Shown in pieces: positions 30,901-60,944 of a stretch of DNA of 64,000 nucleotides. Each line of letters opens with the position of its first letter. Position 1 is the first letter of the stretch. Source of the DNA: an uncultured delta proteobacterium (lineage in GTDB: Bacteria > Desulfobacterota > Deferrimicrobia > Deferrimicrobiales > Deferrimicrobiaceae); NCBI GenBank assembly GCA_963760885.1, contig CAVXEY010000008.1, positions 255,022-319,021 of the forward strand. The letters are read 5' to 3'. Made by a program: the position numbers and the translations under genes. Under the pieces are notes generated by a model, which did not search any database, was not told where the DNA came from, and worked only from the letters and a program-made list of their open reading frames with translations.

Positions 30901-33900
30901 TGGCGAGGTGGCCGTACAGCTGCGCGTCGGCCTCCGTGGCGTTGATCTGCTGCAGAAGCACCTGGCTGTGGGTCCACGCCAGGTCGAAGACGCGATCGGC
31001 GAGCCGCCGATCCTGGTGCTTCTCGATGAGGCCCATGCAGACGTCCCGGGATTCCCCGACCCCGGTGACGATGTTGACGGTCGCCTCCTCGTCGGGGCCG
31101 AGCGTGATCCGGTGCCGGATCGCGACGATCGGATCGAGTACGGACCCCTGGCTGTCCGACAGGTCCGCGGTGCCGCGCAACGCCTGCGGATCCGCGACGG
31201 TGTTCCCCCGGCCCAGAAACCGCATGCGGTCGGTCTCGAAGGAAACTTCCCCGACGTCCCCCCCGCGTACCGACATCAGGTGAAACATCCACGGCGCCGG
31301 CTCGCCGGAGGAGCGGGGCCGGCGCGTGCAGAGGATCGCCTTCCGCTCGCGAACGATCTCGGTCTGGACGAAGAGGTTCCCGAACGCCGGGTGCAGCGCG
31401 TCCGCGGCGGGCGTTCCAAGGACCACTTCCGCGTAACTCGTGATCTCCACCGACCTGCGCGCCTGGGAGCGGTTGACGATCCGGACCCGGCGCACCTCGG
31501 CGTCGTCCTCGGGGGAAACGGCGATTTCCGTATGCGTTTCGAAATCGTGATCGCGGCGGCGGAACTCCACCCGCGCCTCCGAGAATATCGCCTCGTACTT
31601 CTCCGGTCGCTTGAGCGTCGGCTGGTGACGCGGTGGACCAGAACTCCCCGCTCGCGGCATCGCGGAGGTAGCAGAACGTCCCCCAGTTGTCGCAGGTGCC
31701 GTCCTCGCGCCAGCGCGTCACCGCGATGTCCTTCCAGCGGCTGTACCCGGCGCCCGAATTCGTGATCATCACGTGGTATCTGCCGTTCGACAGCAGCTGC
31801 ACCTCCGGTACGGGAGTGTCGGGGGTGCCGAACGAGCGCACCGGCATCTCGGGGACGCCGGAAGCCGTGGGGAGGCCGGAGAGCTCGGCGGCGAGGGTGT
31901 AGGACGCCGTGGCCTTCGGAACCCGTTCCTGAAGCAGGAGCGTGGTCGCCTGGAACAGCGGATCCGACTCGAACCGCTTCTGCATCGGACGGTCCAGGAG
32001 CAGGGAATCCAGGGAGAGGAGGCTCATGCCCTGGTGGTGCGCCATGAAGGACCGGACGACCACGCTCGTCTGCCCGCGTCGCTGTCGCGAGGGGGTGTAG
32101 TCGATGGCCTCGTAAAAGCCGTATTTACCGATCAACTCCTTGTCCTCGAGCAACTGCAGATTCCGGCACGCCTCCTCGGGGGCCACCATCAGCGCGAGAA
32201 CGGACGCATACGGCGCCACGACCAGATCCGACGCCAGCCCCCGCTTGAGCCCGAGGCCGGGCACCCCGAACGCCCGGTACTGATAGTTGAGGCGGACGTC
32301 GACCTGGTTGTATCCGGATTCCGACATGCCCCACGGCACGCCGCGCTTCTTCCCGTACTCGATCTGCCGCCTCACCGCCGCCTTGCAGGTACGGTCGATC
32401 AGCGTGTTCTCGTACGTCGGCATCACCAGGAGCGGCATGAGGTACTCGAACATCGAACCGCTCCACGAAAGGAGAATCGGTTCCCCCCCGGTGGCGGTGA
32501 GCAGGCGCCCCAGGGCGAACCACGACTCCTGCGGCAGTTGTCCCTGCGCGATCGCCACGAACGAGCACAGTCTCGCTTCCGAAGCCAGCAGATCGTAATA
32601 CCCGGAGTCCCGTCGGCGCTGGCTGACGTTGTAGCCGATCGCCAGGAGATGGCGCCCCTTGTCGTAGAGGAAGTCGTACTCCACGCGGGCGAGCTCCCCG
32701 CATTGCAGCGCGAGGCGGTCGATCTCGGAAATCCTTTCCCTCGCGCGCCGGTTCGCCTCCGGTACCAGCAGCCGGAGCTCGGTTGACCAATCGCTCTTCT
32801 CCTCGAGCGCCGCCAGCGCGCGCAAAGTCGGGATCCCGTCGAGGCCGGGGAAGTCGCCGATGAACGCCACGTCGTCGAATGCGGCACGGCATTGACGCTC
32901 GAGGGACCGCGCCCACCGGCTCGGCGCGCCGTCCTCGTCCCCCCGGAAACTCCCGGCGATCTCCCCGGCGCACCCCGTCAGCCGCTCGAGGCAGAGTTTC
33001 GCCGTCCCGGGCGTGGCGGGAGGGGAACCGAGCGAGGAATCCAGGATCTCCCGGAATTGCGCGAGCGGGGGAGGCGGGGGCCCGTCCACGGCATCCGCGA
33101 GAACCTGAAAGGTGTCGCGGATGCCCTCCAGCCATCGCTCCCCGAGGACGCCGTGACCCGGAAGCTCGAGCAGGCCCTGCCGCAACGTCAGCAGGTGGCC
33201 CGAGAGGTTCCCGCTGTCCACCGTCGAGACGTAGAGAGGGAGCAGCGGTTCCAGGGATTGCGTGTCGTACCAGTTGTAGAAATGGCCTCTGTGCCGCGCC
33301 AAGGTTTCCATCGTGCGCAGCGCATTCTCCGTGCGCTCGAGGAGTTGCCCCGACGGAATGTACCCGAAGTCGTAGGCGGCCAGGTTCGCGAGGAGCGCGA
33401 GCCCCATGTTGGTCGGCGACGTACGGTGGGCGATCGCGCCGATGCGGTATTCCTGGTAGTTGTCCGGCGGCAGCCAATGCTCTTCCGGACCGACGAACGT
33501 CTCGAAGAACGCCCAGGTCCTGCGCGAAAGCTTCCGGAGAAAGAGGATCTGGCTCGCCGAAAGGGCGGCCCTGCGGCGGGCGAGCGGGAGGCTGATCCAC
33601 CAGGCGACGGCGGGAGAGGCGAACCACAGGGCGAGGACGGGCCCGGCCGTCGCCAGCGCGGCCGGCCTCGAAACCACGAGGTCGATCGTCGCGGCGGCGG
33701 CGATCGCGGGGGCGATCCACATCGACCGGAAAAAAACCGCCGGACCCTCGCCGCGCCGGCGATCCGGGGTCCCCGACGGGCGCCATTCGAGAAGACGCCT
33801 GCGCGTGAACAGCATCCGCCCGGCCGTGCGCACGACCGCGTCCAGGCTGAAAAACGCCTCGTGCGGAAGGCACGCGAGCGTAAACCCCGCCTGGGCGAAG

Positions 33901-36518
33901 CGCCGTCCCGCGGAGCGCGCTTCGGCGGCGAGGTGCTGCGGCAGCAGCACGTCGGGGGGCTTCCGGAACATCTCGAGGCCGGAAGCCATCACCGAAGGAA
34001 GCAGGAGGATCCCGACTACCGACACGGTCCAATACCAGGCGGCGGGCAGGGAGGTCCAGCCCGCCAGCAGCAGGAGCGTCAACGCGGAAGGCTCGAGGCT
34101 GCGCCGAAGATTGTCGAAGACCTTCCATTGGGAGAGCCCGGAGAGCGGGTTCCTGCGGCGGGCGTCGCCGGGACCGGGAACGCGCGACAGCAGCCACCCG
34201 GCGATCTGCCAATCCCCGCGGATCCATCGGTGGCGGCGGCTTACGTCCGCGAGGTAACTGGACGGGTACTCCTCGTACAGGCTCGCATCGCTCAGCAGTC
34301 CCGCCCGCGCGTGGCACCCTTCCAGGAGATCGTGGCTGAGGATCCGGTTCTCGGGAAGCCGTCCCTTGAGGGCCTGGTCGAACGCGTCGACGTCGTAGAT
34401 CCCCTTTCCGATGAAGGAGCCTTCCCCGAACACGTCCTGGTACACGTCGGAGACGGCGCGCGTGTACGGGTCGATCCCCGGTTCGCTCCCGAACAATCGC
34501 GCGTACCGCGACCGGTTCGTGCCCGACAGGCTGTCGGCCACGCGCGGCTGCAGGATGCCGTGCCCCTCGGAGATCCGCTCCATCCGCCCGTCGTACCGCG
34601 CGCGGTTCAGCGGGTGCGCCATGGCTCCGACGAACTGGCGGGCCGAGTCCCGCGGCAGCTGCGTATCCGTGTCGAGGGGGATCACGAATTTGACGTTCGA
34701 CAGATCCGCGGTCCTGCCGACGACGACGGAAAAACGGTCCCGTGCGTCGCCGCGAAGAAACAGGTTCAGTTCCGCGAGCTTCCCCCGCTTGCGTTCGTAG
34801 CCCATCCAGGTCCGCTCCCGCGGGTTCCATCGCCGCGGGCGGTGGAAAAGGAAGAACGGATCGCTCTTCGCGCTCCCGTACTTGCCGTTCAGCTCCTCGA
34901 TCCCCTTCCGGGCCAGCCGCAACAGCTCGCCGTCTTCCGGGGCCGTTTCCTCGTCCGCATCCAGGAAGTCCGTCAGCAGGGCGAAGTGCAGGTTTTCATC
35001 CCGGTTCGCCAGGAACCGGACTTCCAGGGACTCGACCAGGGACTCGATGTTCCGGGGGCTCGCGAGCATCGCCGGAATCACCACCAGGGTGCGCGATTCC
35101 GGCGGAATGCCTTCGGAGAAGTCCATTCGCGGCAGCGGATGCGGCGCCACGAGCACCGTGGAGAGCCAGTTCACCAGCGCGACCGCCAGCCGGCTGGCGC
35201 ACAGCAGGGAGAGGGCGCCGAACAGGGCGAGCGGTCCCTCCCGCACCCCGCCGGCATGCGCCTTCGCCAGCAAGGCCCCGGAAAAAACGACCGTCAACAG
35301 CGTGATCGAGCCCAGATAGAGGTGCAGGGAAAACCGACCCGCCGTCCGCCGAAGGGTCTCGGGAAGGGGCAGCCGCGCCCCCGCCGCCCGCTCCAACCGC
35401 GGCAAACCCTTGTCGACCAGGTAAAACCCGACGTGCGCCGCGCGATCGTCCGGTCCGCTCCCGGCGGCGGCTTCACCGGCCAGCAGGATCGCCTCGCGCG
35501 CCACGTCGGCTTCGTGCAGACGGCTCCACTTCGCGATCTTCTCGACGACGTGGCGGTACCTGTCGCGGGTGGTGAAATCCATCCGGCCGTAGGTTCCTCC
35601 CGGGTCCTCGCGCAACGCCTGCTCGACGGCGCTCATCGTCTCGACGAATTCGCGCCAGTCCATCGCCCCCAGGAACCGGAGGCTGGCGATGCTGTTGCTG
35701 ACGGAAACCTGGTCGGCGGCCTTTTGCTGGTTCTCCGACCGGACCATCTCCTCGATCGTCAGGCCGGACTCCGAAAGCCGCTGTTCGATCCAGGTGAGGG
35801 GCAACGCCAGGGCGGTGCTCTGCCCCTGCAGCCGGCGGGCGAATTCCGCGACGAAGGAGCTCACCATCGGCGGATCCGACCGCGCCATGTCCGCGGTCAG
35901 CAATATCAGGCTCTTCGGGTCCTTTTCGGAGATCACCACCATCTGCTCCGCCCAGCGGGCGGCGAGATCCCGGTCGATGGAACCGGCGGCGACCCGCGCT
36001 CCGACGCGCCGGAGATTCTCGATCAGCGCCAGGCGCAGCATGATGGGGATGGCCCACAATTCCCCCAGCGTCAGGACGGTCACCTTCTGGTAGGACGCCA
36101 CGAAACCGGTGAGACTTTCCGGGTCCACCCGCCCATCGCCGTGCGAGATCGCCTCGTGCGCGATGTCGTACACGCGCGGGAGTCCGGCCGACGGCCCGTC
36201 CAGCAGGCGGGGCAGTTCCCGGCTGTACCCCTTCGGCAAGTGTCTCTTGGCCGTGCGGATCTGTTCCTCGATCAGGTAGAAGTTGTCGAGGAGCCATTCC
36301 CCGGCCGGGGCGATCCGGCGGTTCGCATCCACCGCCGAGGTCAACAGGCTGCAGGCTCCCGTCAGAACGCGTTCATTCTCCGCCAGCCGGTTCAGAAGCT
36401 TGTCCCGGGTTCCTTCCGGTCCCAGCCTGTGGGAGCCCGCGAGCGTCTCGCCGTGAATCTTCATCCGGTCGCTGCTGAACAGTTCCGAACGCAGCGGCGA
36501 CTCGTCGCCGGCGTACAT
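27959..36518 (-). pseudogene. ndvB: Cyclic beta-1,2-glucan synthase (NdvB/Cgs, ~2850 aa) interrupted by a single-base frameshift near 31628
   Basis: N-terminal SPLRSELFSSD...ETLAGSHRL and a GT-84 glycosyltransferase region. The C-terminal GH94-like phosphorylase domain (YEAIFSEARVEFRR, IAVSPEDDAEVRRV) lies in a second frame; the two ORFs overlap at 30129-31660. Removing one a at + strand ~31628 restores ...FWSTAHQPTLKRPEKYEAIF... Confidence 0.8.
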
Positions 36519-36803
36519 TTTCGCCGATCCTCTCCCGCGGATGCCGGCGCCCAAGAGGCGCATCTTCGCGAGGATGGTCTTTCCGCCTGCCTTCAAGCTC
36601 GATGTCTCCCGGGGTTATGAACGTTGTTCCCGCCGGCGATGACCAGGACCCCACGCGGCGAAGGCCCGCCTGCCCCTTCGCCGGTTCGAAACGGAATGCG
36701 GGGTTCTTTGCGACGGGTCCTTGTTCCCCTACATGGTGACAGGAACACGGCGTACCGTAAACGACATTCCCATGAAGCGATACGCGGTACCGGCGGGGAC
36801 GGC

Positions 36804-38684
36804 CTATTCGACCAGGCCGGAAGCGGTTTCCTTGTCCGGGTCGACGTTCTCCCCGGCCGGGCCCGGAGAGGGCTTCTGCCACCGGCTCAGGGTGATCGAC
36901 TGGATCGCGGCGGCGAGGCCGAAGGAGAAGATGCTCGACACCAGCGGCATGCCCCTGGTGCCCAGCAGGTCGGAGGTGGACTTTACCGCACCCACCGCGA
37001 TGACCAGGATGGCCACGTTGCGGATCTCCCGGTTGCGGGTGCGGAAGGCGTAGAGGCCAAGCCCCAGGGCGGCGAGGTTGATGACGACCGACTGGGTGCA
37101 CTGGAAGGCGTCCGGCCCTCCGGGCCCGGCGGGAAGGATGATCCACCAGGCGATCACGCGAAGGAGGAAGAAGGATCCGGTCAGGGCGGCCAGGAGGGTG
37201 ACGGCGCCGCTCAGATCCCGCGTGTCGTAGGCCCCGAAGAAGGGGGAGCGGGCGGGCGGGGCGTGGTGTCTGCACCATCGGTAATGGACCAGGGCGGCCG
37301 CGGCCAGCACGGCGCTGGGGACCGCTCCGGCCAGGGGCGACGCGGGGAGTCCGTCGGCAAGGAAAGAGAACGCCAGGGACACGACGGCGTAGACCTGGAG
37401 CAGGTAGGAGGTCGCCCGTACGGCGCCGCTCCCCCACCGATCGGAGAGGACGGCCACGCCAAGGGCCGCGGCTCCCAGAACGGGGGCGGCGGCCAGCACG
37501 CTGCCGAGGGCGGCGGGGAGTGCCAGCACCATGAGGGCGCTCCCGGCGACGACGAAGGAGTTGGTGCCGGGGGCTCCCTCGATTCTTCGCGTCGCGAGCC
37601 AGATGGCGGCCCCGAAATGGAGGAGGGCGAACGCGATCGCCACCAGGCTGAGCGCGAGGGCGCTTCCTGCGGTCTCTCCCACGACGACCCGGGCCGCCAG
37701 GTACGACCCGACGACGTTGATCGTGGGAAGGCAGAAATCGAAGACGGAGAGTTTCGCGCCGCGGCTCCGGACAATGCCCAGGAGGGCGATCGTCAGGAAG
37801 ACGACGCCGACGACGGCCAGGACCGGAAGGAACCACTCGGGGGCCAGGGTGCGCGCCGCGGTGATCCTGTGGGCGGCGACGGCCTCGAGCCGCATCCCCC
37901 AGAGAAGGAACATGGCCAGGGTGACGAGGAGCACGGTCCAGCGGAGCCAACCGCAACGCCTGAGGGACCCCGCGTAGTATCCCAGGAGGTTGGCCGTAAG
38001 GAGGACCATGAAGAGGTACGGGAAGAAAGGGTCGGGGTAGTCGATGGCCGCGCCGGCCAGGCACATCCCCAGGGTACCGACCGACACCGGGAGAAAAACC
38101 GAGAACCGGCGGCTGACGAACGCCATGCCGGCGCCGGTGGCCATCAGCGTCCAGTAGGCGGGAACGAGGGGGAGCGACCCGAACCGGCCGTGGGTCTCGA
38201 CGACGATGCTCGACATGAGGATCGCCCCGCAGGCGACGAACACCGGGGCCAGGGAGCTGCCCCGGCGATACTGGTACCAGCCGGCAACCATGAGGGCCGC
38301 GGCGTAGCCCATGCCGAGCCCCATGCCGGGGAGGGGGTTGACGATGCCGCTGTCCGTGATGGTCCGCAGGATCAGGGCGACCACCATCAGGAAGCAGAGC
38401 GTGGCCAGGCGGGGAAAGAGCGACGCCTGGCTCGCCCAGCGGATCGCCTCGTCGGAGAGGTTGTCGGACTCCCCTGCGGCGGGCTTGCCCGGCGGTTTCC
38501 CGGGGCGCGGGGGAACCGCCGGCGGGAGGATCGTCTCCGGGCGGGCCGTGGATGCGGCGGCCGATCGATCCCGGGCGGATGCCGGCCGTCGTCCCTCGAG
38601 ATCCGCGACCCGCCGGCTCAGGCTCTCGACATGCTCGTAAAGCCGGTCGACCTTCTCCTCGATCGTCAGCTTCTGATCGCGCAT
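36804..38684 (-). CDS. Large polytopic membrane protein (DUF2339-like): N-terminal cytoplasmic coiled region, then ~16 TM segments
   Basis: Hydrophobic periodicity throughout. N-terminal KLTIEEKVDRLYEHVESLSRRVADLE. Start chosen at the ATG with a GGAG RBS. Confidence 0.45.
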   Translation of the reverse strand: MRDQKLTIEEKVDRLYEHVESLSRRVADLEGRRPASARDRSAAASTARPETILPPAVPPRPGKPPGKPAAGESDNLSDEAIRWASQASLFPRLATLCFLMVVALILRTITDSGIVNPLPGMGLGMGYAAALMVAGWYQYRRGSSLAPVFVACGAILMSSIVVETHGRFGSLPLVPAYWTLMATGAGMAFVSRRFSVFLPVSVGTLGMCLAGAAIDYPDPFFPYLFMVLLTANLLGYYAGSLRRCGWLRWTVLLVTLAMFLLWGMRLEAVAAHRITAARTLAPEWFLPVLAVVGVVFLTIALLGIVRSRGAKLSVFDFCLPTINVVGSYLAARVVVGETAGSALALSLVAIAFALLHFGAAIWLATRRIEGAPGTNSFVVAGSALMVLALPAALGSVLAAAPVLGAAALGVAVLSDRWGSGAVRATSYLLQVYAVVSLAFSFLADGLPASPLAGAVPSAVLAAAALVHYRWCRHHAPPARSPFFGAYDTRDLSGAVTLLAALTGSFFLLRVIAWWIILPAGPGGPDAFQCTQSVVINLAALGLGLYAFRTRNREIRNVAILVIAVGAVKSTSDLLGTRGMPLVSSIFSFGLAAAIQSITLSRWQKPSPGPAGENVDPDKETASGLVE

Positions 38685-39044
38685 GCGTGAATCTCCGTGG
38701 CTCTGCCGCGGACGTCCGTGCGGACGGGGGGGAGAGCCCTCTTCCAAAACGCGGTTTTAATATATTACCAGTGACGATTGCCCGGATGGCAAGAAAATCT
38801 TTCGGCGGGAAGGACCGCGCCCCGGCCAAGGCAGGCTGGCGGCGTCGATTTCCGGTTCCGGACGGGAGGATGGGACCCGGACTTCGGTGAGCATAGGACA
38901 AATACCGGTGAGGGAATCAGACAGAAAGCGGCGCGCGGTTCGGACAGAAGCCGATACCGAAGACCGGCGGACGGGATTATGTTGGTTGCAATCCTCAAAG
39001 GCTTGCGCCTGCCGGGTGAAGGACGAGGGAAGCAGGAGGGAATG

Positions 39045-39365
39045 ATGGGAGCGGTAACGGTCTATCGATTGGATGACGGCAGGAATACCGGATATCGAAC
39101 CAGACACCCTATCGGGACCGTATTGGAGCTGCGGATATCCGAACGGGGGAACAACGACAGGGACCTGTTGCGGCTGGCACGGAAACTCTTCGCTTTGGAT
39201 CCGGCGGACGCCGCCCACGTCCTCATCGACGTGGGTCAAGGCCGGGATCCATACCTCGCGGGCGGACCCGGTCCGGCTTGGCGGGGTAGTTTCGGAGATA
39301 CCCCTTTTTCACGAATGGTTGATGCTCCTCCACGTATTCCTGGTCGTCAAGGTCCTGTAGACTGA
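39045..39365 (+). CDS. Small conserved hypothetical protein, paralog 1 (AVTVYRLDDG...RTRHPIG...DLLRLAR family), C-terminally extended relative to paralog 2
   Basis: RBS AGGAGGG lies 7 nt upstream. About 60% identical to the 40916-41161 product. The ~150-nt upstream leader is also duplicated. Confidence 0.5.
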   Translation: MGAVTVYRLDDGRNTGYRTRHPIGTVLELRISERGNNDRDLLRLARKLFALDPADAAHVLIDVGQGRDPYLAGGPGPAWRGSFGDTPFSRMVDAPPRIPGRQGPVD

Positions 39366-39404
39366 TTCTGCAGAGGAAGGCGGTTTCATCGGGATGGTGC
39401 GATC

Positions 39405-39695
39405 ATGACGGTAAATTGGTTGTTGAGAATCATGACGGGAAGCGCATTGTTTGCGTTGGCAACGGATTCGTTCGGAGCCGATGCCGCCGGGGTACTGGGG
39501 CCTGGCTCCACGGCCGGGTTGTTGATCCTGATCGGGTTGGGCCTGGTCGGGTTGGGGTTACGGGGTCGGAAGACGGACTTTCAAGAAAAACCTGTCGACG
39601 GTCGCTACCTGTCCTTGGGAATGAGGGAGGTGAATCTTCGCGGGACATCCCTGTTCCGGCGAACAAGGGGTAAGGAGGGCAAACGGAAAGGATGA
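39405..39695 (+). CDS. Small secreted/membrane mini-protein with signal peptide and a PEP-CTERM-like segment (GPGS + TM + RGRK)
   Basis: MTGSALFALATDSFGADAA signal-like segment, then LLILIGLGLVGLGLRGRK. Weak RBS. Confidence 0.3.
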   Translation: MTVNWLLRIMTGSALFALATDSFGADAAGVLGPGSTAGLLILIGLGLVGLGLRGRKTDFQEKPVDGRYLSLGMREVNLRGTSLFRRTRGKEGKRKG

Positions 39696-39773
39696 AGTAC
39701 CGGGATTCATCGGCCGATACGAGGGGAAGCGGCGGGCTTCCGCTTCCCGCAACCTGGAATCAAGGAGGTTCCC

Positions 39774-39887
39774 ATGTGCCAGACCTGTGGATGCAGTGCG
39801 TGCAAGACCTGCGGCAAGGAGATCAAGAACGGGGTATGCGTCGGCTGCAGCAAGCCCTCCGAAAAATGCACTTGCAAGAAGCCGTAG
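39774..39887 (+). CDS. 37-aa cysteine-rich peptide (9 Cys), metallothionein-like
   Basis: Translation is MCQTCGCSACKTCGKEIKNGVCVGCSKPSEKCTCKKP. Strong RBS AAGGAGG 6 nt upstream; a perfect terminator hairpin follows directly. Absent from the ORF track (shorter than 60 aa). Confidence 0.5.
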   Translation: MCQTCGCSACKTCGKEIKNGVCVGCSKPSEKCTCKKP

Positions 39888-39902
39888 AGGGGATTCCGTA
39901 AC

Positions 39903-39950
39903 GAGGAAAGGAGGGAATCCGGCCTGAGGCCGGATTCCCTCCGGTTTTTA
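39903..39950. terminator. Strong (likely bidirectional) intrinsic terminator between the Cys-peptide gene and sodA
   Basis: GGAGGGAATCCGGCC-tgag-GCCGGATTCCCTCC followed by GGTTTTT. Confidence 0.7.
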
Positions 39951-39983
39951 TCGCGGTGGATCCGAAGGCGGGGTTTACGCCGT

Positions 39984-40595
39984 TTACGCCTTGGCCTTCC
40001 CGAAGTTGTCCGCGACCTGCGCCCAATTGACGGTGTTCCACCACGCCTCGATGTATTCGGGACGCCGGTTCTGATACTTCAGGTAATAGGCGTGCTCCCA
40101 GACGTCGAGGCCGAAGATCGCCTTGCCGCCGTCGATGACGGGATTGTCCTGGTTCGCGGTCGACTCGACGACGAGTTTCCCGCCGCGGATCAGCAGCCAC
40201 GCCCAACCGGACCCGAATCGCGATGTCGCGGCCTGGGTAAACGTTTTCTTGAAATCCCCGAAGTTGCCGAATGTGCTCTTGATGGCGTCGGCCAGATCCC
40301 CCGACGGCTCGCCGCCGCCTCCCTTTTTCATGATCTTCCAGAACATGGAATGATTCATGTGGCCGCCGCCGTTGTTGCGCACGGCGGTACGAACGGCCTC
40401 CGGCACGTTGCCGATCCGTTCGAGCAGCTCCTCGACCGGAAGTTTTTGAAGCTCGGGGTGGCCTTCGAGAGCCTTGTTGAGATTGTTGACATACCCCCCA
40501 TGGTGCTTGTCGTGGTGAATCTCCATCGTCTTCGCGTCAACGTACGGTTCAAGTGCGTCGAAGGCGTATGGGAGCGGCGGCAAAATATGTGTCAT
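39984..40595 (-). CDS. sodA: Fe/Mn-family superoxide dismutase (Mn-type signatures)
   Basis: Carries [17 protein letters not shown], the ANQD Gln position, and DVWEHAYY. Confidence 0.9.
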
Positions 40596-40915
40596 CGGGC
40601 AAATCTCCTTTCCAGCCGGCTCGTGACCGGTATCATCTTTCCCTTAAGATGCATCGGGGACACGGGAACGTTTCCCCGCGCGATCTTCTTTATCCGGCGC
40701 AAGCCGTGGGTCCGTTCCGGAGCCCGCGAGCGCGCGCGGCGGCGAATGCGGTTCCCCGCGGCTATAGGACAAACACCGGTCCGGGAATCAGACAGACGGC
40801 GGATCGCGTATCGGACAAAAGCCGATACCGGGGGCTTGCGGGCGGGATTACGTTGTAGGTAATCCCTGAAGGCTTGCGCCTGCAAAGTGATGGACGAGGG
40901 AAGCGGGAGGAAACG

Positions 40916-41161
40916 ATGCGAGCGGTCACGGTTTATCGGTTGGATGACGGCGGCAATTTCAGTTTTCGCACCAGGCACCCCATCGGGTCCGTAATGGAAC
41001 TGCGAACACAGGATCGGGTGAACAACTCCAAGGACCTGTTGCGCATGGCACGACGACTCTTCGCGGTGGATACGACGGACACCGTGCGCATCGTCATCGA
41101 CGTGGGTCAGGGACGGCAGGCAACCCCGCAGGAGCGGACCCGGGACGGCTTGGCGGGGTAG
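40916..41161 (+). CDS. Small conserved hypothetical protein, paralog 2 (81 aa), heading the radical-SAM operon
   Basis: MRAVTVYRLDDGGNFSFRTRHPIGSVMELR...DLLRMARRLFAVD...VIDVGQGR. The leader matches the paralog 1 leader. Confidence 0.5.
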   Translation: MRAVTVYRLDDGGNFSFRTRHPIGSVMELRTQDRVNNSKDLLRMARRLFAVDTTDTVRIVIDVGQGRQATPQERTRDGLAG

Positions 41162-41300
41162 TTTCCGTGGATGTCGCCTCTTTGCGCATGCCTGTCGCCG
41201 GATTCCTAACACCGGAAATTTCACCACACAAGGGCGCGATGAGAGATAATGATCGACAGCGCATCCGGTCGTCGACTCTCCTCCCGACGAAAGGTCAGGC

Positions 41301-42788
41301 ATGAAGGTTCTGCTGCTGTATCCCCAATTCCCCGATACGTTCTGGAGCTTCCGCCACGCCCTCCCGTTCATCGGAAAACGGTCCGCCTATCCCCCCCTGG
41401 GACTGCTCACCGTTTCGGCGATGCTCCCGCCGCACTGGGAACGGAAACTGGTGGACCTCAACGTGGAGGAGCTCCGCGACAAGGACATCGCCTGGGCCGA
41501 CGTGGCCTTCCTGAGCGCCATGCTGGTCCAGGGGCCGTCCCTTGCGCAGGTGATCGCCCGTTGCCGGAGGGCGGGATTGCGGACGGTGGTGGGCGGACCG
41601 GTCACGAGCGACGGCAACCCTTCGTACGAAGGCGCGGACCACATCGTCCGGGGCGAGGCGGAAAGGGTGATCGACGAGCTGGTCTCCGACCTCGAGGCGG
41701 GCAATGCGCGCCGCGGTTACGAAGCCGACGGGCGAACGGACATGACCCGGGTCCCTCCCCCCGACCTGCGCCTGGCGCGATTGCGACGCTACAGCGCGAT
41801 GCCCATCCAGTACTCCCGGGGGTGCCCGTTCTCCTGCGAGTTCTGCGACGTCATCGAGCTCTTCGGGCGAAACCCGCGCACCAAGTCGGCGGGGCAGGTC
41901 CTGGAGGAGTTCGAACAGCTCTACCGCATGGGGTGGCGGGGGTCGGTGTTCATCGTCGACGACAACTTCGTCGGCAACCGGCAGGCCATCAAGGACCTGC
42001 TTCCCCGGCTCGCCGCGTGGATGGGCGCCCACGGCAATCCGTTCTCCCTGTTCACCCAGGCGTCGATCAACCTGGCCGAAGACGACGAACTGCTCTCCCT
42101 GATGCGTGCGGCCCGCTTCAACAAGGTGTTCATCGGGATCGAGACCCCTTCCGCGGAATGCAACCGGGCGGCGGGCAAGATGCAGAACGTGAAGGCCGAT
42201 CTCTTGGCGTGCGTGCGGCGTATCCAGGAGCACGGGATGGAAGTGATGGGAGGGTTCATCGTCGGCTTCGACCAGGATCCCCCGGAGATCTTCGAGAGGC
42301 AGATCGCCTTCATCAGGGAGGCGGCCATCCCCATCTCCATGGTAGGCGTCCTGATCGCGCTCCCCAACACGCGGCTGTGGCGGCGGCTCTCCGAAGAGGG
42401 CCGGATCCTGCGGCAGAGCATGGGGAACAACACGGAGGCGCTGCTGAATTTCATCCCCAGGATGGACCCGGAAGCGCTCCTCGCGGGCTACCGGAAGGTG
42501 CTGGCATCCATCTACAGCCCGTCCGAGTATTTCGAACGCGCCCAGGCGATGATCAGCCGCCTGGGGATCCGGCCGAAAACGCGCCTGGTCGGCTCGGACT
42601 ACCTCGCACTGTTCCGGTCGTTCGTCCGGCAGGGGATCATCGCCCGGTACCGGGTCCACTACTGGCGATTCATCGGCAGAACCGCCCTCCGCACGCCGAG
42701 GCACCTGGGCCTGGCGGTCACGCTGGCCATCATGGGGCACCACTTCTTCGTCCTTTCCCGCCGGATGCAAGCGAAACCGACCCGGTGA
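41301..42788 (+). CDS. B12-binding-domain radical SAM protein with C-terminal DUF4070 (BchE/HpnJ-like class)
   Basis: N-terminal B12-binding fold (LLLYPQFPDTFWS...LGLLTVSA), the radical SAM motif CPFSCEFC, and a DUF4070-like tail (LLNFIPRMDPEALLAGYRKVLASIYSP). Confidence 0.85.
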   Translation: MKVLLLYPQFPDTFWSFRHALPFIGKRSAYPPLGLLTVSAMLPPHWERKLVDLNVEELRDKDIAWADVAFLSAMLVQGPSLAQVIARCRRAGLRTVVGGPVTSDGNPSYEGADHIVRGEAERVIDELVSDLEAGNARRGYEADGRTDMTRVPPPDLRLARLRRYSAMPIQYSRGCPFSCEFCDVIELFGRNPRTKSAGQVLEEFEQLYRMGWRGSVFIVDDNFVGNRQAIKDLLPRLAAWMGAHGNPFSLFTQASINLAEDDELLSLMRAARFNKVFIGIETPSAECNRAAGKMQNVKADLLACVRRIQEHGMEVMGGFIVGFDQDPPEIFERQIAFIREAAIPISMVGVLIALPNTRLWRRLSEEGRILRQSMGNNTEALLNFIPRMDPEALLAGYRKVLASIYSPSEYFERAQAMISRLGIRPKTRLVGSDYLALFRSFVRQGIIARYRVHYWRFIGRTALRTPRHLGLAVTLAIMGHHFFVLSRRMQAKPTR

Positions 42789-42859
42789 TCCCCGGCGCGA
42801 CTCCCTTCCGGATGATTGGAATACGAAAGACCGAATGACTTCATGCAGTTATAATCATA

Positions 42860-43579
42860 ATGTCCGTCGCGTTCCTGGCGTCGCTTCTCAGTTCCATGAG
42901 CGGCGCCGGCGCAGCGATGCTGACGACTCCGGTCTGGCTCTCCCTTGGCTTTCCCCTCCCGGTGGCGATCGCCTCAAACCAGTTGAATGGTGCGGCCTGG
43001 ACCCTGATCGCGGCCCGTAATTACCTGAAAGGCAAAACCGTGGACTGGGCGCTGATCAGGATCATGATATTCTGCGGGCTTGCGGGCGCCTATGTCGGGA
43101 CCATCATTGTGCGCGGCGTGGATGCGCATATCCTGCAACGCGTCATCGGCATGATCATCATCGCCCTGGTCGTAGTAGTGGCATTCAACCCCGCGCTGGG
43201 CCGCACGGAAAGGGAGCCGCTCCTCTCACGCCGCCTGACCGGCGTTCTGGCCTTTCCTCTTGGGGTGTACGAATCCTTCTTCGGATCGGGCAACGGCCTG
43301 TTCACTTCATTACTGCTGTCGAAAACCCGCGGGATGCCCTTGCTCACCGCTCTCGGCTGTTATTACCTTGTCGCCTTCTTCTGGAACGGCTTCGCCGTAT
43401 CCGTCTACAGTGCGGCCGGATTCGCCGACAGCAGCCTGATGGTCCCCTCCACGGCGGGTTCCATGCTGGGAGCCTATATCGGCTCACGGGTCGGCCGACG
43501 GAAGGGATATGGTCTGGTAAGGGCGATGTTTCTCACGGCAGGAGGAGCGCTGGGAGTGAAATTGGCGCTGGGGTGGTAA
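42860..43579 (+). CDS. TauE/SafE (DUF81) family anion exporter
   Basis: Two 4-TM repeats with Gly-rich motifs (SGAGAAMLTTP, FGSGNGLF). Confidence 0.75.
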   Translation: MSVAFLASLLSSMSGAGAAMLTTPVWLSLGFPLPVAIASNQLNGAAWTLIAARNYLKGKTVDWALIRIMIFCGLAGAYVGTIIVRGVDAHILQRVIGMIIIALVVVVAFNPALGRTEREPLLSRRLTGVLAFPLGVYESFFGSGNGLFTSLLLSKTRGMPLLTALGCYYLVAFFWNGFAVSVYSAAGFADSSLMVPSTAGSMLGAYIGSRVGRRKGYGLVRAMFLTAGGALGVKLALGW

Positions 43580-43653
43580 TGTTTCATCCCCCTTGGCAAG
43601 GCACTGCAATACTTTTACTTATCGAAAGGTAAGATTCCCGAATTGCCGAACCC

Positions 43654-46425
43654 TTAGTGCGCCGGCCCGGTCAGCAAGCGCTTGAGCACATCCATCGCCT
43701 TGCCGAATTTCCCCCAGTCCCCCTGCTGCATCGCTTTCTGGGCATCCTCGAACTGCGCCCTCGCCTGGTCCAATTCCGGTTGCCGGAGGGACACCTGCGC
43801 AGGATTCCGGGGTTGCCGTGTCCCGAAGAGCGATTGGATTGCCTCATCGAGTGTAGACTCCATTACCACCTTATCCCCCGAAATCATGATCACGCGCTTG
43901 AGTTGGGGGAAATCCGTGCCTTCCGCCGTGAGGTACACCGGCACTACATAGAGAAACGAGTTCTCGATCGGAACCGCGATCAGGTTCCCGCGAATGACTC
44001 TCGACCCTTTTTGATCCCAGAGGCTCAGTTGCTGGGAGATCGTAGTGTTCTGATCGATCATCGCCTCGATTTGCATCGGGCCGTAGACCAGCTTCTCCTT
44101 GGGAAGTTGGTAATAGAGCATCTTCCCGTATTCGGGGAAATCGCACCTGGCGGCCATCCAGGAGATCATGTTGTCTCGCTTCTGAGGCGTGAAAGAAGTC
44201 ATGAGGAGGTACTCAAGCCGGTCGCTTCCGGGGAGCTTCATCAGGATGTAATAGGGCTGCATGGGCGCGACCTTGCCCGCGTACTTCTCTTGGGGGAGCA
44301 CCCAGAGGTCCTCCCGGTTATAGAAGACCTGCGGAACCGTCATGTGGAACGTTCTGTACAGGTCGGCCTGGAGGGAAAAGAGATCCTCCGGATACCGCAG
44401 ATGATTTTTAAGATCCGCCGAGAGCCGATTCAGGTCCATGAAAACACCAGGAAACGCGCGGCGATAAACCGCCAAGACGGGGTCGTTCGGATCCATGATG
44501 TAGAATCGAACGGTTCCGTCGTACATGTCCACAACGATTTTCACGGAGTTTCGAATGTAGTTCAGCCCTTCTCCGAAGGCCGCCGCGTGGGGACTGGAGT
44601 AGGGAAAGTGATCCGAGACGGTGTAGGCATCCTGGATCCAATACAGTTTGCCCTCGCTCACCACGGCGTAGGGATCCTGGTCGAGGCGCAGGAAAGGAGC
44701 GATCTGCCACACGCGCTCCTGAACGCGCCTCCAGATCTGGATCCTGCTTTCCGGCCGGAGATAGGAGGTGAACAGGATGTTGATGTCGGATTGCGTCCAG
44801 GCGAACAGGAGCCGCTTCCACAAGCCGTCCAGCGGGATACCTCCTGTTCCCTTGTAACTCGTGTACACATTCTGATTCCCCTTGGGGTAGTCGAGCTCTT
44901 TGACGCCCGTCGCGACGATCCGATATCCCGGCATCGACTTGCCGTAGTAGATGGAAGGCCGTTTTATGGTTAGGCCGTAAGCGGATTCGGGTGGGATGTT
45001 CTCGATAAGATACTCCGGAAAGCCTCCCCCGATAGCCTTCGAGACGAAGCTCATGACCAAACCATAACCATGCGTAAACTGCAACTTCTGGTTAACCCAG
45101 GTTTGGGCTTCAGCGGGGAGGCTCGCGGAGAGCTCGCGGGCCGAAAGCATCACCTGATGATAACCATCCGGCAGATGGTAGCGGTCCACGTCCGCCTCGT
45201 AAAACTGGTAATAGAGTCGTATCTCCTGGGCTTGTTTGTACGTCTGCAGCAATGGGCGCCAGTCCCAGAGTCGGATGTTCTGGATCGTGTCTTGATTTCT
45301 GGCAATCACCTCGGACGTCAGATCCGACAGCGCCGGGTAAGATGTTTCCTGGATCGCGTCGAGCCCGTAGGCCTTTCGGGTGAACTCTATGTTGTTCTTG
45401 AGATACGGGGTTTCGAGGACCAGTTCGTTCGGCTGTACAATGAACCTCTGAAAGAGTGACGGCACCAGCAAGACCGCGACGATGTACAACCCCACGTAGA
45501 TCCAGGATCCAACAACGATCGCCCTGAGTCGCGGACGGAAGACATTGAGCGCAAGCAGCGCGCACAGCGCCGCCGAGGCGCCGGCCATGATCCATAAGGC
45601 GATCCGGGTCACATGGCTCGCCGTATAGCCGGCTCCGTAAACTACTCCCAGTGTGGAGTAGAGGAGTTCGTAGTGATCCAGGTAAAACCCCCACCCCCAA
45701 TTGGCGACCAGTACGAAGAACAGGATGGACAGATGTGGAACGGCCTTCGCGCTCCGGCCTTCCATCTGTCCGCTGCGGATGAACCGCAGTACCCCGAAGA
45801 ACGCGTAGAAGACCAGTACGGCCACGACCGTCATCAGCGTCAATACGGTCAGGCTGCTTTGCAAAAGCTCATAAAAGGGGAGACGGAACAGATAAAACCC
45901 GGCATCGACCCCGAAGAGGGGATCGGATAAACCAAAAGATCCGCCATAACGGAATCGGAGATACGTATCCCATTGCGCATAGAAGACCTGCGCAAAAATC
46001 AGGGCGGCGAAAGCAGCGACCGCGCCCATGGCCAGTTTCAAAATCGTGGGGGAGATCTGGATACCGAGTCTCGCGGCAACGGTAGACTCGCTTGTCAAAG
46101 TACCCGCCAGGAACGTGGCGCCGTTCCTCATCGCGAAGCGAAGATTGATCCAGAGGAACAGAAGTGCGACAACGAAAGCCGCGCAAAACAGCTTCCACTG
46201 CAGGAACAGGAGGGTCCAGAAGACGCCGGAGTAGCCGACCTCCCGCATCCACAGCCCCTTCTGTATCCAGCCGGAAATGACGGTCAGGAGAAGGATGAAT
46301 ACGACCGCGGCAACAGTGATGATTTTCAGCGGACGCCATCGCCGGGGGATGGGGTAATTTCCGGCAAATCTACCCTTTTCGCCCGCAAGCAGCCTTGGCT
46401 GCTCGCCGTGTGTCGGTTTCTCCAT
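43654..46425 (-). CDS. UPF0182-family large membrane protein (N-terminal ~7 TM, large extracytoplasmic domain)
   Basis: Size, N-terminal TM block, and C-terminal ...AQKAMQQGDWGKFGKAMDVLKRLL. Start chosen at the ATG after the GGGAGGG RBS. Confidence 0.55.
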   Translation of the reverse strand: MEKPTHGEQPRLLAGEKGRFAGNYPIPRRWRPLKIITVAAVVFILLLTVISGWIQKGLWMREVGYSGVFWTLLFLQWKLFCAAFVVALLFLWINLRFAMRNGATFLAGTLTSESTVAARLGIQISPTILKLAMGAVAAFAALIFAQVFYAQWDTYLRFRYGGSFGLSDPLFGVDAGFYLFRLPFYELLQSSLTVLTLMTVVAVLVFYAFFGVLRFIRSGQMEGRSAKAVPHLSILFFVLVANWGWGFYLDHYELLYSTLGVVYGAGYTASHVTRIALWIMAGASAALCALLALNVFRPRLRAIVVGSWIYVGLYIVAVLLVPSLFQRFIVQPNELVLETPYLKNNIEFTRKAYGLDAIQETSYPALSDLTSEVIARNQDTIQNIRLWDWRPLLQTYKQAQEIRLYYQFYEADVDRYHLPDGYHQVMLSARELSASLPAEAQTWVNQKLQFTHGYGLVMSFVSKAIGGGFPEYLIENIPPESAYGLTIKRPSIYYGKSMPGYRIVATGVKELDYPKGNQNVYTSYKGTGGIPLDGLWKRLLFAWTQSDINILFTSYLRPESRIQIWRRVQERVWQIAPFLRLDQDPYAVVSEGKLYWIQDAYTVSDHFPYSSPHAAAFGEGLNYIRNSVKIVVDMYDGTVRFYIMDPNDPVLAVYRRAFPGVFMDLNRLSADLKNHLRYPEDLFSLQADLYRTFHMTVPQVFYNREDLWVLPQEKYAGKVAPMQPYYILMKLPGSDRLEYLLMTSFTPQKRDNMISWMAARCDFPEYGKMLYYQLPKEKLVYGPMQIEAMIDQNTTISQQLSLWDQKGSRVIRGNLIAVPIENSFLYVVPVYLTAEGTDFPQLKRVIMISGDKVVMESTLDEAIQSLFGTRQPRNPAQVSLRQPELDQARAQFEDAQKAMQQGDWGKFGKAMDVLKRLLTGPAH

Positions 46426-56648: not shown

Positions 56649-56780
56649 CATTTCATAAATACGGGAACGTATCCGGATGCACATCGAAGCGGGATACCCC
56701 TTCCGAGCGGGCGTGAGGGAGGGAGTATCACGCGGAGAGAGAGGCGCCTCCGGGTGAAATGTACCCGTAATTGTGAAATG
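56649..56780. mobile_element. MITE-like repeat element copy C (132 bp) with 22-bp imperfect TIRs
   Basis: Left CATTTCATAAATACGGGAACGT versus right reverse-complement CATTTCACAATTACGGGTACAT (18 of 22 match). Internal gggagtatcacgcggagagagaggcgcctcc matches copy A. Confidence 0.55.
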
Positions 56781-59549: not shown

Positions 59550-60944
59550 CTACGGGAAATCCCCCGCCTCGAGGATCTCCCGGACACGGTACAGGAAGCC
59601 GTTTCCCGCCACGCCGTCGATGACGCGGTGGTCGTACGCGCAGCAGAGGTACATCATCGGCCGGATGACGATGGAGTCTTCGCCGTCCACGTCGATCACC
59701 ACGGGGCGCTTCACGATCTGCCCCAGCCGGAGGACCCCCACCTGCGGCTGGTTGATGATCGGGGTGCCGAAGAGGTTCCCCCGGATCCCCGGGTTGGTGA
59801 TGCTGAAGGTGCCCCCCGAGAGCTCGTCCGGCGAGATCTTCCCCGACTTCGCCCGCGCGCCGAAGTCGTCCATCGCCGCGGAGATCTCCTTCAGGGACAT
59901 CCGGTCCGCGTGGCGCAGCACGGGGACGAGCAGCCCTTTTTCGGTGTCGACGGCGACGGCGATGTGGATGTCCTTTTTCAGCACCGTGCTCTCTTCGGAC
60001 ACGGTCGCGTTCATGATCGGGGTCTCCCGCAGCGCCTTCGCCGCGGCGTGGATCACGAACGGAAGGTAGGTGAGGTTCACGCCCTCCTTTTTCGCCCTGG
60101 CCCGCGCCCCCACCACCCGGTGCATGTCCACCTCGGCGAAGATGTGGACGTGGGGCGAGGTGTGCTTGCTCCGGACCATGTGGTCGGCGATCTTCTTCCG
60201 GATCGGCGTCCACGGCACGACCTGGTCCCCCCCGGGCTTGCCCTCCGCAGCTTTAGCGGCAACGGGCTTCCCCTCCGCGGCCTTCGGGACGACGGCCTTG
60301 CCCTCCGTAGCCTTGGCGGCAACGGGCTTGCCCTCCGCGGCCTTCGGGACGACGGCCTTGCCCTCCGTAGTCTTGGCGGCAACGGGCTTCCCCTCCGCGG
60401 CTTTCGGCTTCCTCGCAGAGGCGCCGGAAGCCAGATACCCCTCCACGTCCTTCCGCGTCACCCGTCCGTCGATGCCGGTCCCGGGGATCTTCGACAGGTC
60501 CAGGTCGTGCTCGGCGGCCATCCGGGCCACCACGGGGGTGATCCGGACCCGGCCGGTCGCCGGGGGCGGCGGCGCGGGGGCGGACGGTTCGACGCGCGGG
60601 GGCGCGGGGATCGGCGGTCCCGACGTACGCGCCATGTGCCCGGGGAACCCCTCGGTCTCCTCGTCCCATTTCGGCGCCGCTTCGGGCGCGGGCTGGGACG
60701 CCGCCGCGTCCGTCTGGAGTTTCGCCAGCACCGCCAGAACGGGGACCGTCTCGCCCGGCTTGACCAGGATCTGCGCGACCCGCCCCGCGGACGGCGAGGG
60801 GATCTCCGCGTCCACCTTGTCCGTGGAGATCTCGAGCAGGGGCTGGTCCTTGGCGACCAGATCCCCCACCTCCACGAGCCACTTCACCACGACCCCTTCC
60901 ACCACGCTCTCCCCGAGCTGGGGCATCACGACGTCGATGAGCAT
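59550..60944 (-). CDS. 2-oxoacid dehydrogenase E2 dihydrolipoamide acyltransferase
   Basis: Lipoyl domain (EISTDKVDAEIPSP), peripheral subunit-binding domain, a repetitive Ala/Pro/Lys linker, and the catalytic domain ending DHRVIDG. AAGGAG RBS. Confidence 0.9.
   Translation of the reverse strand: MLIDVVMPQLGESVVEGVVVKWLVEVGDLVAKDQPLLEISTDKVDAEIPSPSAGRVAQILVKPGETVPVLAVLAKLQTDAAASQPAPEAAPKWDEETEGFPGHMARTSGPPIPAPPRVEPSAPAPPPPATGRVRITPVVARMAAEHDLDLSKIPGTGIDGRVTRKDVEGYLASGASARKPKAAEGKPVAAKTTEGKAVVPKAAEGKPVAAKATEGKAVVPKAAEGKPVAAKAAEGKPGGDQVVPWTPIRKKIADHMVRSKHTSPHVHIFAEVDMHRVVGARARAKKEGVNLTYLPFVIHAAAKALRETPIMNATVSEESTVLKKDIHIAVAVDTEKGLLVPVLRHADRMSLKEISAAMDDFGARAKSGKISPDELSGGTFSITNPGIRGNLFGTPIINQPQVGVLRLGQIVKRPVVIDVDGEDSIVIRPMMYLCCAYDHRVIDGVAGNGFLYRVREILEAGDFP
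60235..60420. repeat. 48-nt tandem repeat (3.5 units) encoding the repeated AAEGKPVAAKxTEGKAVVPK linker of E2
   Basis: Direct reading of near-identical 48-nt units gccctccg(c/t)ag(c/t)cttggcggcaacgggcttgccctccgcggccttcgggacgacggcctt. Confidence 0.7.

Follow-up and report, generated by a model that had tools for sequence, protein, structure and literature searches.

Why do two small genes of an unnamed family, each at the head of its own operon, have nearly the same non-coding sequence in front of them? The question is raised by a stretch of 64,000 nt (the window) from an uncultured delta proteobacterium of the Deferrimicrobiaceae (contig CAVXEY010000008.1, positions 255,022 to 319,021 of the forward strand). 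In a preliminary description of this DNA, the shared sequence was taken for a co-duplicated leader of ~150 nt. The shared region is real, but it is not a single unit: a 94-nt cassette that is used throughout a regulon is followed by a segment of ~58 nt that is specific to the small-protein family. The cassette is probably, though the reserve is considerable, an activator-dependent promoter/operator of a general-stress-like regulon.

Two paralogous units and their upstream regions

The upstream regions of the two genes (38892-39044 and 40763-40915) align without a gap and are identical at 121 of 153 bases (79%); over the 100 nt 5' of each, identity is 32%, the random level. Similarity sets in abruptly at (C/T)ATAGGACAAA, which reads CATAGGAC in copy 1 (38892) and TATAGGAC in copy 2 (40763). 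As read in the alignment, the onset is CATAGGACAAA / TATAGGACAAA, and similarity continues into both open reading frames (ORFs). The likeness of ~77% reported earlier for 38893-39044 and 40767-40915 is therefore sound, but the start at 40767 has to be corrected to 40763/40764. The two features that had been singled out as retained, a GGATT..AATCC repeat (in full, a GGGATTA..TAATCC inverted repeat) and the block GGCTTGCGCCTGC...GGACGAGGGAAGC.GGAGG, were found in both copies.

Both upstream regions lie on the plus strand and are built alike. Cassette copy 1 spans 38892-38985, corresponding to columns 1-94 of the cassette alignment (nhmmer profile match, E=1.5e-21, together with column statistics and alignments), and copy 2 spans 40763-40856 (E=4.9e-24). 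Each contains three 14-nt direct repeats, at 38894-38907, 38917-38930 and 38940-38953 in copy 1 and at 40765-40778, 40788-40801 and 40811-40824 in copy 2. Close to the 3' end lies a hexamer resembling a -10 element, TATGTT at 38978-38983 (columns 87-92) and TACGTT at 40849-40854. The family-specific leader follows, at 38986-39044 with the GGCTTGCGCCTGC block, a fourth GGAC box (GAAGGACGAGGG) and the Shine-Dalgarno (SD) sequence GGAGG, and at 40857-40915 with the SD sequence GGGAGG. Paralogue 1 (39045-39365, plus strand) is 106 amino acids (aa) long, or 107 aa from the ATG at 39042, and is frameshifted by a 1-nt deletion. Paralogue 2 (40916-41161, plus strand) has the canonical length of 81 aa. 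The two proteins are 56-62% identical.

A cassette placed before many genes

How far does the element reach beyond these two genes? Loci were fetched by protein and by DNA pattern and are denoted by L-numbers; the counts of copies given here refer to these loci and to the window. The upstream regions of 20 homologues from varied genomic contexts align over ~153 nt and all start at CATAGGAC, and a pattern search found the first part of the region again elsewhere in the same loci. The profile of this first part, the common 94-nt cassette (CATAGGACAAACACCGGTCCGAGAATCAGACAAACAGCGACTCGCGTTTCGGACAGAAGCCGATACCGAAGGCTGGCGGGCAGGATTAYNNTGT), matches 87 times in the fetched loci; in the window it matches only at the two sites described above. 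The cassette precedes ~40 genes of the small-protein family and its distant paralogues. Other genes behind it, confirmed in part by Pfam, encode DUF5670 (lmo0937-like), CsbD, one- and three-domain BON (BON/OsmY-like) and Usp proteins, as well as an alpha/beta hydrolase, acetate kinase, an ECF sigma factor, a PAS-GAF-GGDEF protein, a class A PBP, MlaE, and several small membrane or secreted proteins. The genes behind the cassettes form a coherent stress set. Common regulation of the two units, as originally suggested, is upheld and widened to a regulon, the same element standing before dozens of stress-type genes. By contrast, the last ~58 nt (..GAATGCGTGCGCCTGCCGGTTGAAGGACGAGGGAAACAGGAGGnnACG-ATG) are conserved before the 77/81-aa genes and not behind the cassettes of other genes; even some family genes do without this segment (L016:3343, L067:2857).

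The internal order of the cassette is regular. Three direct repeats TnRGACARAMnSCG, present in 77 copies, occupy columns 3-16, 26-39 and 49-62 and are thus spaced 23 nt apart. Repeat 2 occurs as two sequence variants, and its box is AGAC, not GGAC, in most copies. In a natural variant, L016:1962, the cassette is short by exactly one 23-nt repeat unit. There is also a TCGG-N7-CCGA dyad, with its centre near -43 when counted from the putative transcription start. Cassettes always face the downstream gene, 113-211 nt before its start codon. Repeated boxes at a fixed distance from a core promoter, in front of functionally related genes, are what defines the operator of an activator-dependent regulon, and this is what the cassette displays.

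Is the upstream region a folded RNA?

The shared region had been suggested to be a redox- or metal-responsive RNA element, in other words a riboswitch-like, structured cis-regulatory RNA. This idea would agree with the strong conservation, over ~150 nt, of the sequence before genes near superoxide dismutase (SOD) and a Cys-rich peptide, and with the stable GGGAUUAC/GUAAUCCC hairpin that can be drawn in window copy 2. However, every search for structure was negative. Rfam (cmscan, E<=10, positions 36000-44000) was silent in both leaders, and on the whole window at the gathering threshold it returned only a tRNA. RNAalifold on 20 leaders gave no consensus structure and just four invariant pairs (a UCGG/CCGA hairpin). 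Folding of single sequences yielded z-scores of -1.3 to +0.9, no better than shuffles; for 77 cassettes the mean folding z was -0.42 on the sense strand versus -0.35 on the antisense strand, and alifold of the whole unit returned equal energies on both strands.

Covariation was likewise missing. The top mutual-information pairs are not Watson-Crick and reflect the two variants of repeat 2. Five candidate helices, scored over 75 sequences, reached a covariation score of 0.081 versus 0.075 in shuffles, and 56 of the 500 shuffles scored as high. Among the five, the GGATT/AATCC stem forms pairs in no more than 62% of cells and shows no covariation above controls. An expression platform was not seen either: the 260 nt that follow each of the 87 cassettes contain no hairpin with a T-run, and the window leaders contain no terminator and no platform that could sequester the SD sequence. 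Moreover, the downstream genes form a broad stress set and not one pathway, and beyond its nearness to SOD and the Cys-rich peptide the cassette has no specific tie to redox or metal sensing. A riboswitch-like RNA is largely refuted by these computations and must be regarded as highly improbable. Leader conservation itself extends far beyond this genome, and the small proteins have homologues elsewhere, so that two of the outcomes named beforehand as refutations did not occur; it is the covarying structure that was not found.

Two further candidates were rejected. A small RNA (sRNA) or attenuator does not agree with the absence of terminators downstream of the cassettes. Coding potential inside the leader was dismissed as well: in copy 2 the sense-frame ORF is interrupted by a stop, and the long antisense ORFs are broken by indels in homologues.

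A probable promoter at the 3' edge of the cassette

If the region is not a folded RNA, at what level does it act? In columns 87-92, the first position is T in 67 of 75 sequences, the second is A in all 75, three positions are free, and the last is T in all 75. This is the signature of a sigma-70 -10 element, in which A(-11) and T(-7), the two flipped-out bases, are the most conserved. TAnnnT is found at column 87 in 59 of 73 non-redundant copies and at any one position of the 80 nt upstream of the cassette in at most 6 of 73. Conservation that is common to unrelated downstream genes stops 2 nt past the hexamer. Because the cassette ends in this -10-like TAnnnT, most of the ~150-nt region is more likely to be promoter/operator DNA than 5' untranslated region (UTR). 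Transcription from about column 99 would give 5' UTRs of ordinary length (14-112 nt).

The placement of cassettes in the genomes points in the same direction. Divergent cassettes stand back to back with their outer 5' ends 8-9 nt apart (L002/L003, L119) or at distances of 29-118 nt (L060, L079, L094, L022, L039). Such pairs would be natural for divergent promoters that share an upstream region and awkward for 5' UTRs that each need a promoter of their own. In L004 only 6 nt separate the cassette from the end of the preceding gene, in L005:1739 a stop codon lies inside box 1, and in L004:1397 and L015:2680 terminators end ~27 nt before the cassette. Abutting genes, stops and terminators of this kind therefore leave no room for a separate promoter upstream.

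Which protein might act on the repeats? In two loci (L005:8-1208, L016:521-1934) a histidine-kinase fragment and a regulator with Response_reg and GerE domains lie directly upstream of cassettes. The two-component pair ends ~35 nt before the cassette, and a remnant of it is seen in L019 (~3700-3800). The last ~45 nt of the regulator gene and the spacer (..AACAAGCTGGTGGATTGATCCGAACCCTCCGG..) also stand upstream of cassettes in L006, L007 and L013, from which the regulator gene is absent. By gene adjacency, a NarL/GerE response regulator is the best candidate for the regulator.

From comparison of these sequences the following mechanism, with its start position, regulator and inducing signal, may be proposed. 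The cassette would act on DNA, with TAnnnT serving as the -10 element of a sigma-70-type promoter that has a poor -35, and with the direct repeats bound by an activator of transcription. The start would lie ~7 nt past the hexamer, at about 38990 in copy 1 (predicted range ~38988-38992) and about 40861 in copy 2 (~40859-40863). Transcripts of the small-protein genes would begin with a purine-rich, unstructured 5' UTR of ~55 nt, peculiar to this family, with a strong SD sequence at its end. Both window operons would then be co-induced in a general-stress-like response, because the same cassette would drive CsbD, BON/OsmY-like, Usp, DUF5670, ECF-sigma, GGDEF and other genes.

Several observations weigh against an activator-dependent promoter. 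No -35 is recognisable: columns 64-69 read TWCCGA, with only T64 invariant, and a scan with a generic sigma-70 consensus calls no promoter at either window cassette. The missing -35 hexamer, TTGACA at 16-18 bp upstream, is compatible only with a promoter that depends on an activator. Conserved almost without a break, 94 bp is a long stretch for a promoter/operator, and the 23-bp spacing of the repeats is not an integral number of helical turns. A divergent variant of the cassette that precedes FN3-like genes has no clean TAnnnT. Inspection for other types of promoter (sigma-54, sigma-28, sigma-32, sigma-B and EcfG motifs) revealed partial resemblance only, such as TGGCGG without the -12 GC and a misplaced GCCGATAC, and these candidates were rejected.

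The remaining difficulties are also what would be expected if the whole ~150 nt were transcribed as an unstructured, purine-rich leader whose GGAC boxes are bound by an RNA-binding protein or an sRNA, giving regulon-wide control of translation or stability. The cassette starts with CAT, a classic context for transcription start, and its sharp 5' boundary would suit one. The sense strand is 60% purine and 15% T, and the missing secondary structure is expected of a platform for single-strand binding. The fourth GGAC box lies just 5' of the SD sequence and downstream of the start proposed above, and ACAGGAGG stands at the SD sequence. Finally, hairpins from or next to the hexamer (GGAUUA/UAAUCC, CGUGU/ACACG) show a weak excess on the forward strand only (columns 80-120; z -0.40 vs -0.02), and they could form only with a transcription start further upstream. 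Such a leader might work in the mode of CsrA-type GGA leaders or cspA cold-shock leaders, and the Arg-rich small protein, which is basic and the most frequent cargo of the cassette, could itself be the binder. However, none of the 73 contexts revealed a conserved promoter element upstream of the cassette, and the back-to-back and abutting copies leave no space for one. An invariant TAnnnT exactly where cross-family conservation ends has no obvious rationale in RNA. Box 2, being mostly AGAC, departs from the GGAC pattern, and the small protein has no detectable similarity to known RNA-binding folds. A transcribed leader is therefore the less likely explanation, but a serious rival.

A more specific form of this idea is that the cassette is no promoter but a transcribed, structure-free landing pad with four GGAC boxes, that the Arg-rich protein of 77-81 aa is its RNA-binder, and that both belong to a hitherto undescribed, autoregulated, post-transcriptional stress regulon of the Deferrimicrobiota. 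Its logic would be like that of CsrA or CspA, to which it is unrelated in sequence and fold. This version seems unlikely.

A new family of small proteins

Is the small ORF a gene at all? A search of a database clustered at 90% returned 216 relatives of the 81-aa protein, mostly of exactly 81 aa and 62-83% identical, all of them without a name. A profile search over 1.8 billion representatives found 101 clusters (50% clustering), almost all of proteins of 40-120 aa, with the common core TVYR(V/L)DY..(P)IG.V.ERR..ER.NN..LLRLARK.FA. The genomes with family members, often with at least two each, are metagenome-assembled genomes (MAGs) of Candidatus Deferrimicrobiaceae/Deferrimicrobium and a few soil MAGs with different labels. 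The genus Deferrimicrobium belongs to the candidate phylum Deferrimicrobiota, formerly MBNT15.

The two ORFs had been described as paralogues of a family that could not be placed, and this description holds: the family is conserved, with more than 200 relatives, and lies outside every curated library tried. Neither window copy matched Pfam, and among 70 diverse relatives six unrelated Pfam families were hit by one member each at E values of 0.002-0.09, which is noise. NCBIfam and PADLOC gave no match for the small protein, PHROGs a single one at E 0.048, and a sequence-profile search of the PDB no match; a fold match was not found either. An AlphaFold2 model of paralogue 2 has a pLDDT of 76. 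The protein is predicted to be soluble and basic, with 77-81 aa and a beta-beta-alpha-beta topology; its pI is 8-11.

Length of the ORF, start codon and SD sequence are conserved, and indels are found in the leader but are absent from the ORF core. In closely related pairs, third codon positions diverge faster than first and second positions (identity 0.88 vs 0.96), and the ORF is therefore under purifying selection. The small-protein ORF is a real gene of a new, unannotated family. Fourfold-degenerate sites of the ORF are 0.77-0.87 identical. An additional constraint at the RNA level was considered on this ground and rejected, as such values are general in these genomes: unrelated genes, namely those of a response regulator, a kinase and an FN3-like protein, reach 0.71-0.81.

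Closer at hand, evolution of the gene has been fast. Between the window and the syntenic locus L001, the SOD, radical SAM and TauE proteins are 98-99% identical, whereas the small protein is only 83% identical. At the DNA level 40916-41161 has diverged by 13% from L001:4001-4246, compared with 2-5% at flanking fourfold-degenerate sites and ~6% in intergenic DNA. The substitutions are spread equally across codon positions and lack an adenine bias. This suggests positive selection or gene conversion from paralogues; diversity-generating or hypermutation mechanisms were rejected, the substitutions not being adenine-specific. In L143:810-1282, from an organism of lower GC content, distant family members (64 and 80 aa, in tandem) occur without a cassette, and the protein family is therefore broader than the cassette.

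Operon partners and local history

The gene order around the two copies, with Mn-SOD between them, is as stated in the preliminary description: copy 1, a 96-aa ORF, a 37-aa Cys-rich ORF, a terminator, SOD on the minus strand, copy 2, the B12-binding radical SAM gene and TauE. Copy 1 belongs to a recurrent operon that consists of the cassette, the family gene, DUF5670 and/or CsbD, a 95-aa anchored protein and the 37-aa Cys-rich peptide, with Usp in some loci.

What has happened to copy 1? The sequence is one base short between 39261 and 39262, where the family consensus is CCGGAGCGG and copy 1 has GCGG-GCGG. The ancestral TAG (39287-39289) is out of frame as a result. The deletion had been noticed before; the net extension of the protein, however, is 25 aa and not 30 aa. 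An intact orthologue of paralogue 1 (P0071, 84 aa) is found in the syntenic locus L146. The frameshift may be an assembly indel, because a neighbouring gene in the window is split by a frameshift too. This gene, on the minus strand, resembles GH94 or cyclic beta-1,2-glucan synthase and consists of two overlapping ORFs in different frames (27959-31660 and 30129-36596), while in L001 and L146 the related gene is undivided and encodes 2867-2878 aa. The split is either a real frameshift or an assembly indel.

The tail of the frameshifted paralogue 1 overlaps what similarity suggests is the 3'-end remnant of a DUF5670 (lmo0937-like) gene (39313-39360, plus strand; ..LLHVFLVVKVL*), by comparison with L005, L011, L064 and L114, where an intact DUF5670 gene stands behind the family gene. 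Behind paralogue 2, a conserved tail (TTTCCGTGGATGTCGCCTCTTTGCGCATGCCTGTCGCCGG) extends past the stop codon (41162-41215, plus strand) and matches the ancestral spacer between the family gene and DUF5670. This spacer, conserved for ~45 nt past the family stop codon, leads into DUF5670 in L010, L011 and L114. With its frameshift and DUF5670 remnant, followed by the 96-aa and 37-aa genes, window copy 1 appears to be an eroded version of the recurrent operon.

The 96-aa protein (39405-39695, plus strand) has no Pfam match and has homologues downstream of family genes in L006, L067, L057 and L010. Proteins of this type (95-96 aa) have a signal-like segment at the N-terminus and, at the C-terminus, a hydrophobic stretch rich in Gly and Leu before RGRK/RGRKK, which looks like a PEP-CTERM-type anchor. 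The 37-aa peptide MCQTCGC...CTCKKP (39774-39887, plus strand), also without a Pfam match, contains 10 Cys and is almost invariant across genomes (MCQTCGC(S/E)PCKTCG..NGVCVGCSKPSEKCTCKKK), with near-identical copies downstream of family genes at L020:4928, L021:4413, L067:2050(-), L072:1179(-) and L114:926. It could be metallothionein-like or the precursor of a ribosomally synthesized and post-translationally modified peptide (RiPP). Another recurrent Cys peptide, of 54 aa (MCYNCGCGKPGDDMGDPKN..), is encoded in both L014 and L067. A 15-bp hairpin followed by a T-run (39910-39942), retained in L001 and L146, is likely to be a bidirectional terminator for the copy-1 operon and the convergent SOD gene. 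The Fe/Mn superoxide dismutase itself (39984-40595, minus strand; Pfam Sod_Fe_N and Sod_Fe_C) lies between the two units and has no cassette before it in the window. Downstream of paralogue 2 lie genes for a B12-binding radical SAM/DUF4070 protein (41301-42788) and TauE (42860-43579), both on the plus strand and identified by Pfam, which are probably co-transcribed with it. The order paralogue 2, radical SAM, TauE is the same in L001.

The locus is not the same in three genomes that are closely related to one another. Both units are present in the window. In L001 the copy-1 unit and most of its operon are gone, and what is left is the terminator and a fragment that matches 39597-39705, the last ~100 nt of the 96-aa gene. 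In L146 copy 1 is intact (84 aa) and abuts SOD, and the copy-2 ORF has been destroyed by a change of ATG to ATT and an internal deletion (L146:5913-6516, with flanking genes ~98% identical). Despite this loss, L146 retains the cassette and leader before the radical SAM operon, and a 47-nt reverse partial cassette with repeats 1-2 only faces its SOD gene. Such gains and losses indicate that the units are dispensable and turn over fast; the cassette before radical SAM and TauE is kept.

Could the cassette, or the whole unit, then be repetitive or mobile DNA or a recent duplication, its similarity due to spread or gene conversion and without regulatory meaning? Units have been gained, lost and eroded rapidly among genomes whose flanking genes are 98-99% identical, as the deletions of copy 1 in L001 and of the copy-2 ORF in L146 illustrate. 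The 13% difference in the 81-aa gene where flanking fourfold-degenerate sites differ by 2-5%, the many copies per genome, and a neutral fourfold-site identity that is itself ~0.7-0.8 in these genomes would all be in keeping with this view. On the other hand, the cassette has a fixed orientation and a narrow range of distances to the start codon, and its flanks cannot be aligned, even immediately outside column 1. Constraint differs from position to position, invariant columns standing beside free ones, whereas recent copying would give uniform conservation. Terminal inverted repeats, target-site duplications and an association with transposases were not seen. The window copies have diverged by 21%, and their duplication is therefore not recent. 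Mobile or repetitive DNA is quite unlikely to account for the cassette.

Other repeats in the window

The window contains several other repeats. The sequence GAGGRAGGGAGTATCNCGCGGAGARAGAGGCGCCTCC occurs at 14384-14420 and 56715-56751 (92% identical, 42 kb apart) and looks non-coding, and GGTCGAsGAkCCGTAGCGGAGAGGAAGCC occurs at 14308-14345 and 15838-15875 (89% identical, 1.5 kb apart). These two short non-coding-looking repeats may represent another shared regulatory motif. At 60203-60434 a 30-nt unit (CGGGCTTGCCCTCCGCRGCCTTNGSGRCRA) is repeated six times in tandem, which probably represents a decapeptide repeated within a coding sequence. Three paralogous stretches (2550-3333, 48792-49534 and 51670-52411; repeat families D2, D4 and D5), two of them 2.9 kb apart and the third 46 kb away, are 61-73% identical over segments of 117-191 nt and are likely to belong to a paralogous gene family.

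Significance

The Deferrimicrobiota are an uncultured phylum of peat and soil with a predicted iron-reducing metabolism, and the cassette offers a first handle on how the stress response is organised in them. With its single 94-bp signature, the complete regulon can be listed for any MAG from this lineage. The unannotated family of more than 200 small proteins is flagged as the flagship product of the regulon, and the recurrent mini-proteins (the 37-aa Cys-rich peptide, the 96-aa anchored protein, DUF5670 and CsbD) are flagged for functional work. For RNA-motif discovery there is a caution: long conserved blocks upstream of paralogues can be promoter/operator cassettes, for which TAnnnT at the 3' edge and a back-to-back arrangement are cheap discriminators.

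Comparison with known systems

Is the cassette a variant of something already known? No description of its motif was found in the literature, in which papers on Deferrimicrobium are confined to MBNT15 genomics. In position, in length (~100-150 nt) and in being conserved towards the 5' end but variable towards the 3' end, the region is like riboswitches and the cis-regulatory leaders in Rfam. Unlike these, the cassette has no structure, covariation, expression platform or Rfam match.

The 5' UTRs of the cspA family, with their 'cold box', and CsrA/Rsm leaders are also long sequences upstream of several stress genes in which the sequence is conserved and structure is not. A further shared trait is the presence of multiple GGA-containing motifs, one of them at the SD sequence. 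However, the Rfam models of cspA and CsrB/Rsm do not match, and box 2 is mostly AGAC. The cassette differs further in having a promoter-like -10 inside it and, at many loci, no room for a promoter upstream.

The regulons of sigma-B (Bacillus/Listeria), EcfG (Alphaproteobacteria) and sigma-S (Enterobacteria) likewise place one short upstream signature before many small stress genes. The overlap in gene content is striking: CsbD, BON/OsmY-like, Usp and DUF5670 proteins, and an ECF sigma gene that itself lies behind a cassette. Reference motifs for sigma-B and EcfG are GTTT-N12-15-GGGTAT and GGAAC-N16-17-CGTT. Inspection of the consensus and the column table found neither in the cassette at a workable spacing; the distance from GGAC/AAAC to CGTT is only 9-13 nt, and no suitably spaced GTTT accompanies GGGCAG/GGATTA. 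In contrast to the promoters of these three regulons, the cassette is 94 bp long and has three direct repeats and a housekeeping-type TAnnnT, an architecture that points to an activator with sigma-70-type holoenzyme rather than an alternative sigma factor.

Repeated-box arrays upstream of, and overlapping, a weak -35 are found in response-regulator-dependent regulons such as those of DosR/DevR (dormancy), PhoB/PhoP and SARP (heptad repeats). Further points of likeness to regulons of this type are a NarL/GerE-type regulator gene beside the cassettes, Usp genes among the targets and a box core that contains GGAC. The DosR box is a 20-bp palindrome, and the repeats of PhoB and SARP have periods of 11 or 22 bp. 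The cassette, by contrast, has 14-bp direct repeats at 23 bp and a TCGG-N7-CCGA dyad, and its link to a regulator is one of adjacency only. Although it matches none of their motifs, the regulon resembles those of sigma-B, EcfG and sigma-S in its genes, and the direct-repeat promoters of response regulators in its architecture.

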